IMG/VR virus record: IMGVR_UViG_3300033485_000031
Location: 1 to 46,268 of that record
Source: a virus
Lineage: Duplodnaviria > Caudoviricetes
Strand: one strand, 5' to 3'
Length of the DNA: 46,268 nucleotides
Part shown: positions 6,886-37,363 of the stretch, in pieces
Position numbering within the stretch: position 1 is the stretch's first letter
Layout of the letters: each line of letters opens with the position of its first letter
Translations under genes and position numbers: made by a program
The notes under the pieces: generated by a model
The model's input: the letters and a program-made list of their open reading frames with translations, nothing else
Databases searched by the model: none
What the model was told of the DNA's origin: nothing

Positions 6886-7257
6886 ATGGCAACTTACGAG
6901 AGCACAGGGCAGCTAGTAATCGACGGCGTGCCGGCCTACGATTTGACAGGGCTCACAAAGACCACGGACGCCCAAAAAAACCGCGTTTTCACAAGCGAAG
7001 GCTTTGCAGGCATATCGCGGGGCGCGGGCTTCACCGAAATTCAGGTGATGCGCGCCATTCCAATCGCTGGTTCAAATATCGACGTTGAGCAATACGTCGA
7101 TTCAAGCAACAGTGTGCCGGTGCAGGTTTTCACGGGCGGGAAAGTTTACGCCTTTGATGCTCATTTTGAGCGCTCGACGAATACAACAGGCGTGAACAGA
7201 GCGGCTGAAAACGCCTTCACACTGGTTGGCCCGCTCACCCTTGGGATTCCAGCGTGA
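6886..7257 (+). CDS. Tail tube protein
   Basis: 123 aa, beta-rich, between sheath and chaperone. Confidence 0.75.
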   Translation: MATYESTGQLVIDGVPAYDLTGLTKTTDAQKNRVFTSEGFAGISRGAGFTEIQVMRAIPIAGSNIDVEQYVDSSNSVPVQVFTGGKVYAFDAHFERSTNTTGVNRAAENAFTLVGPLTLGIPA

Positions 7258-34659: not shown

Positions 34660-34883
34660 AAGAGGTCATTGCCGCGCGTGTGAAGGCCCGCATGGAGGCG
34701 CTGGGCATGAAGCGTGTGGATTTGATCAGAAATGCTGGCGTATCTGGTCAAACCATTGACGGACTGCTCAGGGCAGAAAAGGATTACTCATTAAGCGTTT
34801 TGACTTCTGTTGCCAATGGCCTCGGGATGTCTCTGCGCGAGTTTTTGGGTGCTGGGCTAAATAGCCCAAGCGATTCCCGATAG
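34656..34883 (+). CDS. XRE-family HTH protein
   Basis: MKRVDLIRNAGVSGQTIDGLLRAEKDYSLSVLTSVANGLGMS. Confidence 0.8.
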   Translation: MKEVIAARVKARMEALGMKRVDLIRNAGVSGQTIDGLLRAEKDYSLSVLTSVANGLGMSLREFLGAGLNSPSDSR

Positions 34884-35014
34884 GCGCGCACGATTCACGC
34901 GATCGAGTTTCCCGCGTTCCGCCCTCGCTCATCCCCATTCCGAGCAATTCAATCGATGGTCTTGTAATGCCGTGTAAGGCGGACATTGATTGTCCTACCA
35001 CGCTCACAATTATC

Positions 35015-35042
35015 TTGAAGCCCTTGTTTTCAAGCCTATAAT
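35015..35042 (+). promoter_or_regulatory. Promoter TTGAAG-N16-TATAAT with CTTGAA/TTCAAG palindrome, upstream of the transposase
   Basis: Consensus -10; operator-like palindrome overlapping the -35. Confidence 0.6.
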
Positions 35043-35180
35043 GAACATCTCAAAATAAAAACGCCATCCCGCTTGCTGGTAACAATCGAGATGGCTCCGA
35101 TGCCTGAACGGTTGCCCGTCCCGCACTCTCAACAAGCGGAAGGGTAGGACAGCCGTTCGGAAAGGTCAAGGGCTTTTTCG

Positions 35181-36248
35181 ATGAACGTGCTTCCCTTGTC
35201 GAAGCGCGCGGAAGTGGTCGCGCATCTCACGGATGGGGCCGGCGTGCGCACATCATCCCGCTTGTGTCGGGTGCATAAGAACACCGTTTCATCCTTGGTT
35301 TTGAAGGTCGGCCAAGGGTATTGGAATCTGCACAATAGGCTTGTGCGCGGGCTCCAAGTGCATCGCATCGAGGCCGATGAGATGTTCACCAATGTTTTGA
35401 TCCGCCAAGCGAACCTTCCGCCGAATTGCGACGATTCCGAGATTGGCGAGCAATGGGTATGGGTGGGCATGGCCACGGCTTCGAAGCTTGCGATCTCGCT
35501 TCATGTGGGCAAGCGGACAGCCGAGAGCGCGTATATCTTCGCCCGGGACCTTCGGGCAAGGCTCGCGACCATCCCGTTTATTTGCACGGATGGGCTTGTC
35601 GAATATGTGGACGCCTTCAAGACGCACTTTCGGGGCGCGGCCGACCATGCCCGCGTGGTGAAGAACTTCGGGCGAAAGAAGGACTACGACAAGGTTGCGC
35701 CGCCCCGGGATATGGTGAGCATCGAGAAGCGCGTTGGAAGCGGCGATCCCGATTTAGAGGCTGCTGGCACGAGCTACGTGGAACGCTTCAATTTGACCTT
35801 GCGCCATTACCTGCGAAGGCTCACGCGCCGATCGCCCGGGATGTCCAAGAGCTTGCGGCACTTGAAGGCGATGCTCGCGATCTTCATGGGCGTTTACAAT
35901 TTCGTGAGGCCGCACGGCTCCCTGCGATGCACGCCCGCGATGGAGGCCGGGCTCACGGATCATGAGTGGACAATGGAGGAATTCATCGAGGCATGCCTTG
36001 AAGCCGAGCCTTGTCCGTTGCCCGTTCCCCGGGCTCTTGAGCCTCACCCCGATGCGAATAAGCGTAAGACGGAAACGAAGCCCGAAGGCCGAGGCGCGAT
36101 GCGTAGAACGTCCACGGGCGCCGTCTTGCGTGCCGTCCAGGGTGGGAAGGGGACGCCGCCGATCTCAAAGAAGCACATCCCCGCCTTGGCCCGATGGGTT
36201 CAAAGGGAGCTGTTCGATGGGCTCGATGAGCCGCCTAAGCGGGAATAA
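35181..36248 (+). mobile_element. IS1-family DDE transposase (single ORF); element ends not identified
   Basis: HTH GAGVRTSSRLCRVHKNTV; IEADEMF, HVGKR, CTDGL..Y, TSYVERFNLTLRHYLRRLTRR...SK, YNFVRPH...TPAMEAGL. Confidence 0.85.
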
Positions 36249-36310
36249 AAAAGCACAACCCAACACCCGGGGATGTTGACAAAGCAAGATAAGAAAGTCT
36301 TCGCATCAGC

Positions 36311-36485
36311 AAAAGAGTGATGCAGCCTATCGGCTCACAAGTTTCAATCCACTCGCGCGCGGGTTCCGCATGCGAGGATTACGCTTGTATCCAAGGTGAT
36401 CCGAATGGGCCAACAATTTGTGGTGGGGTATTTTTATAGGAGAACATTTGTGTGTTCTTGTGAGCCGTAGGCTCATCTTCTTTTT
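36311..36485. ncRNA. Candidate structured ncRNA enclosing the solitary repeat
   Basis: 36311-36341 pairs, with three bulges, with 36457-36484; internal hairpins. Confidence 0.5.
36341..36376 (-). CRISPR. Solitary CRISPR-repeat-like unit (type I-C-like); no array
   Basis: Minus strand CTCGCATGCGGAACCCGCGCGCGAGTGGATTGAAAC: hairpin plus the canonical GTGGATTGAAAC 3' end; intergenic, single copy. Confidence 0.65.
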
Positions 36486-36614
36486 GATACGATTTTTGTT
36501 GCAGATCCAAAAATTAATGGCTTATACACGATCGCGTTGTGAAGCGCGCTGCGCGCAGCGCGCATCGCATCTTTTGAACCAAGGCTTTGCTTATCGACTC
36601 CGATTCTTCGCTTT

Positions 36615-36754
36615 AAACAAAACAAAACCCGAAGCGACATCACCCGCTTCGGGTTTTCGAATTGAAGTACGTCGCGACACCTCAAAAGCCCGCGACGAAC
36701 CCTTCTGCCCCAATTCGTTGCACGATATTATGCGACGCGGGACGGGTTTGTCAA
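36615..36754 (-). ncRNA. Candidate sRNA of about 100 nt with own promoter (TTGACA-N16-CATAAT) and terminator
   Basis: Promoter 36754-36727; nested stems GAATTG/CAATTC and CGTCGCG/CGCGACG; 13-bp terminator stem 36624-36657 plus U tract. Confidence 0.5.
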
Positions 36755-36809
36755 CGGTTTTTTTGATGTCGCGCCTCATGGGGATTTCCCCGGAAAGGCG
36801 GCATCCACG

Positions 36810-37022
36810 ATGGAACCGCGTCGCGTTGTCATTAACGGTAAAGACTATGTGGTTGTTTATTGCGCTCACTTCTTTCACAAAGGATTGAAGCGGCGCGTAT
36901 ATGCTAGAGATCACGGAAAGGCATGTTTTGCCATTCACATTCCTGTGGAGAAATACCGTGGAGCAGCGAACGACCAATTATCTTTGCCGTTCGATGAAGC
37001 CAAGAACGATAATAATCAGTAA
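36810..37022 (+). CDS. Small hypothetical protein with clamp-binding-like QLSLPF motif
   Basis: GAAAGG RBS; RRVYARDHGKACFAI; DQLSLPF near the C-terminus. Confidence 0.65.
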   Translation: MEPRRVVINGKDYVVVYCAHFFHKGLKRRVYARDHGKACFAIHIPVEKYRGAANDQLSLPFDEAKNDNNQ

Positions 37023-37036
37023 ATTGGTAACAGATT

Positions 37037-37071
37037 AGGCGCCTATGAAGCCCTAGAGTTCATAGGCGCCT
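37037..37071. terminator. Hairpin between convergent genes
   Basis: AGGCGCCTATGAA / TTCATAGGCGCCT 13-bp stem. Confidence 0.65.
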
Positions 37072-37076
37072 CACTC

Positions 37077-37301
37077 TTAGCCCCTTGCTTCTATCGCGCG
37101 CCAATTTGGCGGTGCGCCGCACGCAATGCAATCGCCTTCGGGATCGGTCAGCCTTCCGAGCAAGGCATCAATCGAGATGTTCATCGCGAAGGCCACGCGG
37201 ATCATGACTTCCGCTGAGATCCTGTGCTTTGCCTGAACGACCTCGTTATCCGAAGCGAGAATGGAAAGCTGACTCTCGCCCATGGACAGCGCCTTACACA
37301 C
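37077..37301 (-). CDS. XRE-like HTH with C-terminal CxxCG, possibly 5'-truncated
   Basis: ISAEVMIRVAFAMNISIDALLG...CIACG; no good RBS or start. Confidence 0.5.
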   Translation of the reverse strand: MCKALSMGESQLSILASDNEVVQAKHRISAEVMIRVAFAMNISIDALLGRLTDPEGDCIACGAPPNWRAIEARG

Positions 37302-37363
37302 GGGCTTCCACGGTCGACATGGTGTTGATTTTGGGAGCCCGTTTTCTTTCTATTGAGGTTGCG

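Follow-up and report, generated by a model that had tools for sequence, protein, structure and literature searches.

Solitary repeats of type I-C CRISPR systems give rise to crRNA-like RNAs that control Nezha, Gabija and CRISIS genes (bioRxiv 2024.12.27.630466). These RNAs have an 11-nt handle, are cut by Cas5c 3' of the hairpin, use TTC or TTA PAMs, and repress promoters that start 37-46 bp downstream of the target, the end to which this distance refers being ambiguous in the accessible text. I-C Cascade recognizes TTY, and a full 35-nt R-loop precedes the binding of Cas3 (bioRxiv 2023.08.05.552134). CreR and CreA, with which the present locus is compared, are also crRNA-like regulators (bioRxiv 2023.03.10.532045; bioRxiv 2026.06.02.729485), and repression by a single guide can extend to divergent promoters on both sides of its target (bioRxiv 2023.03.10.532045). 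Viruses produce crRNA-like RNAs named Cracrs, which silence host cas or creT promoters and for which nine PAM-proximal pairs were the inclusion threshold (bioRxiv 2024.10.29.618823), and phage mini-arrays have been surveyed (bioRxiv 2023.03.03.530964). Racr RNA anti-CRISPRs such as RacrIC1 act by sequestration regardless of the spacer (PMC10651486). In the accessible parts of the Cracr, Racr and mini-array papers, to which statements about these systems are limited throughout, viral guides are aimed at host promoters or act as decoys (bioRxiv 2024.10.29.618823; PMC10651486; bioRxiv 2023.03.03.530964). Of the crRNA-like regulators known so far, some protect the cas locus in which they lie and others, on phages, silence host promoters.

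The DNA analysed here, called the window, is a viral record of 46,268 bases, that of a tailed phage with terminase, portal and tail sheath genes; its CheckV completeness is 61%, though direct terminal repeats are present. The original prediction offered two options for a solitary CRISPR repeat in this record, namely a folded RNA of about 175 nt that presents the repeat to host Cas proteins as a decoy, and a guide that leads host Cascade to the phage's own locus as a CRISPR-sensing switch. We favour, with a probability of about 55%, the explanation that a solitary I-C-like repeat with its guide borrows host Cascade to repress the phage's own promoter or promoters. The parts of the module are as follows.

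36341..36376, minus strand: solitary type I-C-like repeat, a hairpin closed by CTCGC/GCGAG and then an 11-nt tail
36351-36341, minus strand: the 11-nt tail, the would-be 5' handle after Cas5c cleavage
36311..36340, minus strand: guide ('spacer'), with a 10-nt seed at 36340-36331 and, distal to it, a bulged match to the target
36455..36457, plus strand: PAM TTC, the type I-C PAM (TTY in the accessible text of bioRxiv 2023.08.05.552134), seen as TTC also in locus L021
36458..36484, plus strand: protospacer-like target, also a terminator-like hairpin with a T run on the plus strand
36250..36279, minus strand: intrinsic-terminator-like hairpin with a T run, where the predicted guide transcript would stop short of the convergent transposase gene

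On the minus strand, the letters from 36376 to 36341 form the predicted 36-mer, and the claim that it is single-copy holds in that its exact 12-nt tail occurs once in the phage; two tails with one mismatch, at 967 and 10322, belong to coding DNA, have no repeat-like hairpin and were rejected as further repeats. Among 300 shuffles of the whole genome, 3 also produced the 12-nt tail. A search of 185,579 species genomes with a pattern of the stem base and tail gave 22 loci, six of which are CRISPR arrays (L012, L013, L014, L017, L021 and L024, with L013 and L014 on a single contig). The repeats of these arrays have the five stem-closing pairs and the final 11 bases of the phage repeat, in agreement with the view that its 3' end is typical of type I-C repeats, and the same stem base and tail are found in the solitary repeats of two host loci, L009 and L018. 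Comparison of the 36-mer with known repeats thus yielded true I-C arrays of the same stem base and tail, but none of the arrays among the 22 loci is from Myxococcota, the phylum singled out beforehand, and the search thus did not reveal the cognate repeat of a host. Most single, non-array hits among the 22 resemble coding DNA. The similarity of L011, 82% like the phage repeat, falls in apparent coding DNA, and the viral matches L001 and L002 are chance matches within other genes; all three were set aside. Rfam gave nothing for the feature at its gathering threshold, and four weak matches with E values of 0.19-0.92 were treated as chance. Hairpins at 36536-36571 and 36624-36657 were rejected as further repeat units, as neither is followed by a guide with a local target. 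The hairpin followed by an 11-nt I-C handle that characterizes I-C crRNA-like regulators is present in the phage repeat, and the regulatory repeats of hosts differ in stem from their own arrays (L018). In the L021 array, which is of the same repeat subtype as the phage repeat, a spacer has a long match to a TTC-flanked site about 500 nt away, and this site contains an 11-nt duplication (L021 2740-2800).

The 30-nt guide recurs on the opposite strand at 36458-36484, 117 nt away and directly after TTC, with the 10-nt seed and three gaps that had been described. The gapped alignment has 26 identities over the 30 guide positions, three gaps and one mismatch. Without gaps, the match consists of the 10-nt seed and 15 of 30 positions overall, so that the at least nine PAM-proximal matches to a nearby TTC- or TTA-flanked site which characterize I-C crRNA-like regulators are present, and a full match is not. 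The identification of TTC as the type I-C PAM agrees with the TTC/TTA and TTY given in the accessible parts of two preprints (bioRxiv 2024.12.27.630466; bioRxiv 2023.08.05.552134). When the 724 nt upstream were shuffled 20,000 times, the seed with TTC arose four times and the seed alone 179 times; these shuffles understate chance somewhat because the first eight seed bases are over-represented in the phage (eight occurrences against 1.6 expected). With the longest seed match of the whole phage, the target is also, among 20 seed matches of at least 8 nt, the only one that follows TTC. Among 412 loci, the pattern of PAM plus seed was found only in the phage contig itself and in the phage locus L108. 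Hairpins are predicted within the guide.

Two further sites near these elements were noted. A seed-like site at 35002-35009 was rejected as a target, having a TAA flank instead of TTC and only eight matches; the surrounding stretch, 34995-35012, repeats the first eight bases of the seed with a TAGG-like match 5 nt before the -35 element of the transposase promoter. The palindrome AGAACA-N6-TGTTCT at 36441-36458 overlaps the PAM; it might be bound by a protein as an operator, or form a hairpin in which a ribosome-binding site and start codons are masked.

The seed statistics bear on the possibility of a relic or a coincidence, in which a decayed repeat happens to lie beside an inverted copy of a terminator-like sequence. 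The single known copy, the target being itself a terminator-like hairpin, the over-represented seed 8-mer and a guide for which no promoter was found would agree with such an origin. Against it, the handle, stem and PAM are intact and the seed is register-exact from guide base 1, with a downstream terminator and a host-like geometry on top, and so we regard a relic as very improbable.

The host-like geometry emerged from a survey of the 57 best Cas5d-hit loci of Pirellulales/Pirellulaceae, taken from draws with hits in 33 of 251 and 65 of 401 genomes. Nine of the 57 loci have a handle and a TT-flanked seed of at least 9 nt. L137 was left out of these nine for its degenerate handle and 9-nt match; in the remaining eight, a solitary handle is accompanied by a TTC-flanked seed of 10-18 nt. 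The target lies on the opposite strand, 93-236 nt upstream, in seven of the eight (L009, L018, L115, L118, L127, L281 and L282) and on the same strand in one. Since L126/L286 and L281/L282 are related pairs, the host cases represent about six lineages; L126/L286 were first found by a pattern built from the phage repeat, and L009/L018 were not found blind. TTC precedes nine of the 12 seed matches of at least 9 nt in the host Cas5d loci. The phage spacing of 117 nt falls inside the host range, its 10-nt seed is the shortest among the cases seen, and its guide terminator starts about 60 nt after the handle, compared with roughly 25-45 nt in the host cases. In L009 (Rhodopirellula) and L018 (Rubripirellula), antisense solitary repeats have an opposite-strand TTC-flanked seed match 226-236 nt upstream and the feature adjoins the start of cas5c, the L009 repeat lying between cas3 and cas5c. 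A conserved hydrophobic ORF of 63-68 aa with a ribosome-binding site lies between the TTC target and the repeat in these two loci (L009 7372-7563; L018 ~6909-7115); it is present in two of 401 Pirellulaceae genomes and is a candidate CreTA-like peptide toxin. L010 (minus strand, 6740) and L134 (2494) have a solitary handle and a terminator near cas5c and no nearby TTC target, and their targets may be further away.

Two scans of viral contigs, covering at least 245 loci of other stem subtypes, served as a control. Among the matches listed are 159 distinct solitary I-C repeats, 145 of them with at least 300 nt upstream, and an opposite-strand TTC-flanked seed of at least 9 nt was found for none of these 159; four viral loci of the phage's own stem subtype likewise have no such TTC-flanked target. 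Since the layout occurs in host loci and is missing from the viral solitary repeats listed, the phage module looks like a complete host-type crRNA-like regulator of the CreR/CreA/CRISIS kind and not like a typical decoy. Nine of the 159 listed viral solitary I-C repeats (L159, L168, L170, L174, L240, L327, L355, L376 and L382) have a flanking direct duplication of 9-15 nt whose first copy lies 42-64 nt upstream and follows TTC/TTT (or CTT/TCT); these look like repeats inserted into a former protospacer.

The same comparison raises the somewhat unlikely alternative that the module is a captured cas3-cas5c leader, whose RNA silences the host cas promoter in trans as a Cracr, a role absent from the original prediction, or soaks up Cas5c/Cas7 as a Racr, the local target then being a passenger or serving only to adjust the level of the RNA itself by feedback. 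Host cas leaders have exactly this layout, and viral copies of host regulatory guides, I-C included, are documented in the accessible parts of the literature. No cas5c remnant follows the target, however: a 146-aa plus-strand ORF from 36448 was considered and has no relatives. Moreover, the Cracrs described in the accessible text aim at host promoters and not at their own genome, and a local target accompanies none of the 159 viral solitary repeats among the matches listed.

To place the module relative to transcription, the following elements have to be added.

36485..36493, plus strand: candidate extended -10 promoter TG-A-TACGAT, expected to start transcription near 36500, some 43 nt away from the PAM
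36379..36447, minus strand: 22-codon ORF that takes up the interval from PAM to repeat, without a ribosome-binding site
36405..36470, plus strand: 21-codon ORF with a strong ribosome-binding site, its translation only predicted

The transcribed strand had been left uncertain; the polarity of the repeat and the terminator-like hairpin at 36279-36250 both point to the minus strand as that of the guide transcript, which is therefore the most likely one. A convincing minus-strand promoter was not found between 36620 and the repeat, and the strong promoter at 36754 is followed by a terminator, so that the guide would have to be transcribed by read-through from 36754 or with a different sigma factor. 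The candidate plus-strand promoter at 36485-36493 comes from our own scoring with sigma-70 frequencies and was missed by a stricter promoter scan; weaker plus-strand alternatives have starts near 36520-36535. A second ribosome-binding site at 36438-36442 precedes putative mini-ORFs of three and six codons at the target. These mini-ORFs with their Shine-Dalgarno sequence overlap the target and do not lie downstream of it, and the first Shine-Dalgarno/start pair downstream of the target belongs to a 70-aa gene. The hairpin at 36624-36657 sits between the 36485-36493 promoter and this gene, which may have its own promoter.

In the favoured explanation, a minus-strand guide RNA would be transcribed and cut by host Cas5c at the base of the hairpin, and the guide would be loaded into host Cascade, which would bind the target through the PAM and the 10-base seed without cleavage and turn down the adjacent promoter or promoters. 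Minus-strand transcription, processing, binding and lack of cleavage are all inferred steps, the last because a 10-bp match is far below the 35-nt R-loop that recruits Cas3. The main output would be the plus-strand promoter at 36485-36493, giving a structured transcript that runs through two strong hairpins toward the 70-aa gene. This promoter is the most likely regulated output and at the same time the weakest step of the argument, and the 70-aa gene is the best candidate for the regulated gene. The candidate start, about 43 nt from the PAM, falls within the 37-46 bp range of CRISIS genes in the accessible text of the I-C report. The guide's own transcript is probably repressed as well, since the two host cases closest to it have the guide promoter on the far side of the target. 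Where the host has active I-C Cascade, the cassette carrying the module would thus stay repressed, and absence or saturation of Cascade, or its blocking by an anti-CRISPR, would release it. Several points count against this explanation: the guide module is known in a single copy, the guide has no convincing promoter, the plus-strand promoter is a candidate and is separated from the 70-aa gene by a hairpin, the seed is short, the guide terminator starts further from the handle than in hosts, predicted hairpins fall within the guide, and the 22 genome loci include no array from Myxococcota. The original option of guiding host Cascade to the phage's own locus is therefore partly supported, by the stem and tail of the I-C arrays, by the antisense host repeats between cas3 and cas5c with a TTC target, and by the absence of the layout from the viral solitary repeats listed. 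A pure decoy of 175 nt is less likely as it leaves the TTC unexplained, although loading of any guide brings competition for Cas proteins as well.

The bulged distal match is better than that of 1,999 among 2,000 shuffles, and distal bulged matches beyond chance are likewise found in L009 and L018. They are absent from the other five opposite-strand host cases, which consist of seed and TTC alone, and so the earlier argument that the bulges fit an RNA duplex better than an R-loop is not borne out. If guide positions 12, 18 and 24 are removed, 25 of the 27 remaining bases match, and the best triplets (11, 18 and 23 or 24) give 26 matches; the 12, 18, 24 pattern was chosen post hoc. The bulges may be indels that defused a once-perfect self-targeting spacer, or may reflect an RNA duplex or an unusual R-loop. 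Guide positions 12, 18 and 24 are left unpaired in type I R-loops, and as a bolder possibility Cascade might bind far past the seed while the shortened target avoids Cas3.

The distal match is also the starting point of an RNA-level switch, in which a transcript of about 175 nt would fold back on itself, the repeat being a Cas5c cut site or decoy and the pairing controlling a small ORF between the arms, with DNA binding secondary. The minus strand of 36250-36520 folds at -88.8 kcal/mol (z -5.3) with the guide and the upstream arm paired, and the plus-strand fold of the region has a z of -3.8. In L009 and L018, where the distal match recurs, a consensus promoter lies beyond the target, which allows the primary RNA to fold back, and the 63-68 aa hydrophobic ORF separates target from repeat; short ORFs are present on both strands of the phage locus. 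Such a switch, however, leaves unexplained the TTC and the position-6 mismatches of the host cases, which are signatures of DNA targeting; the distal match is missing in five of seven opposite-strand host cases, and the 22-codon minus-strand ORF has no ribosome-binding site. Taken together, these observations make a switch acting mainly at the RNA level improbable, and repression through borrowed Cascade is preferred.

The repeat-guide feature lies 63 nt behind an IS1-family transposase gene, within an element made up of the following parts.

34848..37312, no strand: approximate extent of the mobile cassette, the cargo at ~36249-37076 being replaced in a relative
35181..36248, plus strand: IS1-family transposase, with named relatives, Pfam rve_3 above the cut-off and the IS1 model just below it
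36620..36754, minus strand: small-RNA unit, with a promoter at 36754-36727 (11/12 of consensus) and a 14-pair terminator at 36657-36624
36810..37022, plus strand: 70-aa gene of a small unnamed family (7 relatives, 51-71 aa)
37077..37301, minus strand: small helix-turn-helix ORF, with HTH_3 clusters at 0.91 as a lead, shared with run X2

Relatives of the transposase are named IS1 family transposase, as expected of an IS1-type DDE enzyme. Its best named relatives are from Sorangium (43-49% identity), a hint of a myxobacterial host for the phage. The HTH-like ORF is convergent with the transposase gene and closes the cargo. The transposase side is found from 34848 onward in other flanks (runs X6 and X2) and the HTH side up to 37312 in one X2 contig. 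Between 36217 and 37110, one contig of X2 has 949 bases of other DNA, and in X3 the contig of a related phage has 792 such bases between 34702 and 37301. Each of these joints is seen in a single contig at 80% likeness and can stem from other organisms or repeats; the X2-X7 contig comparison covers the cassette outside 36250-36850. No clear terminal inverted repeats or target duplication were found at the cassette ends, and the two guide/target arms were rejected as IS ends, the cassette edges mapping to 34848 and ~37312. From these joints, the element is read as a mobile cassette with exchangeable cargo.

On one contig of run X2, a CRISPR-repeat-like 27-mer that resembles a type I-E repeat is joined to a piece of the transposase (at 35585); this junction is probably a host spacer against the cassette. 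The junction, by which the cassette seems to meet CRISPR pressure, would also suit the captured cas3-cas5c leader, as would the HTH ORF and the small orphan gene within 1 kb, which recall the acr/aca genes near Racrs in the accessible text.

The 70-aa protein has no significant match in Pfam, PHROG, PADLOC or PDB, and its family was not found in 401 Planctomycetota genomes and the other loci examined; 172 nt of the gene are identical in run X7. From the small-RNA unit, a transcript of about 100 nt is predicted, and it would run antisense to any leader on the plus strand. In its 5' part, this RNA repeats 36741-36773 imperfectly and in inverted orientation; that stretch precedes the 70-aa gene, an arrangement reminiscent of antisense control. 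A similar short motif is found near the C-termini of the transposase (36190-36220) and the 70-aa protein (36975-36995), which we take to resemble a sliding-clamp-binding motif; it is conserved in the transposase alignment and not in the 70-aa family. Elsewhere, the metagenome scan returned the guide module only from this contig, no such repeat or cargo was found in 79 IS1 loci of phages or around the downstream neighbour gene in 50 phage loci, and the cargo DNA has no significant match among annotated phages and plasmids.

A more specific and tentative extension of the borrowed-Cascade explanation, possible but on balance doubtful, is that the element senses the CRISPR status of its host by recruiting I-C Cascade to repress its own 70-aa cargo gene in a CreTA-like circuit. 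The gene would be released when Cascade is missing or blocked by the anti-CRISPR of a competing phage. Since a phage would pay a high price for plain toxin addiction in hosts that lack I-C, a gene with a conditional role or an anti-CRISPR RNA that limits itself is as plausible as a toxin. If true, a parasite would read the CRISPR state of its host through a guide and its own PAM-flanked target and tie a gene to it; alternatively, an RNA anti-CRISPR would limit itself without an Aca protein. The module measures less than 300 bp, and its bulges bear on how far Cascade tolerates targets that lack bases opposite unpaired guide positions.

Cas5d, Cas7 and Cas1 models had no match in the whole 46-kb phage and PADLOC cas models none in 58 of its ORFs, as anticipated by the claim that it carries no cas genes. 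With no cas model match, the module does not lie in or beside a cas locus, and because it is outside any cas locus it is not filed as a host CreR/CreA. A literature search, taking in few subscription journals and leaving preprint supplements aside, found no phage-borne or IS-borne guide aimed at its own element, and the supplements of the Cracr preprint may hold self-targeting cases.

Compared with the accessible descriptions of I-C crRNA-like RNAs, CreR and CreA, the phage module shares one degenerate repeat with a hairpin, an 11-nt handle, a short PAM-proximal match and TTC, as well as a target that adjoins a predicted promoter (a candidate in the phage) and a 3' hairpin or terminator. In those descriptions, CreR, CreA and CRISIS guides sit in cas loci and regulate cas, toxin and defence genes, whereas the phage guide belongs to the cargo of an IS1 cassette; its seed is 10 nt, against 16 for Nezha. 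The Pirellulales antisense repeats of the cas3-cas5c gap have the same strand arrangement, distance and TTC, and L009 and L018 also share the stem base and the bulged distal match. Unlike the phage module, however, the Pirellulales repeats face cas5c or another gene of the cas locus, and their guides have no sequence relationship to the phage guide; the interval from target to repeat holds a hydrophobic ORF and its ribosome-binding site in L009 and L018. As in Racrs, a solitary I-C repeat lies in a viral genome, on a mobile element outside arrays and cas loci and with small genes nearby, as far as the available text describes them; a local PAM-flanked target, absent from the 159 viral solitary I-C repeats among the matches listed, sets the module apart. 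Like the Cracrs and phage mini-arrays in the published parts at hand, it is a phage-borne, host-regulator-like guide with at least nine PAM-proximal pairs, and I-C cases occur among them; the described Cracr targets are in the host, whereas the PAM-flanked target of this module is in the phage itself.
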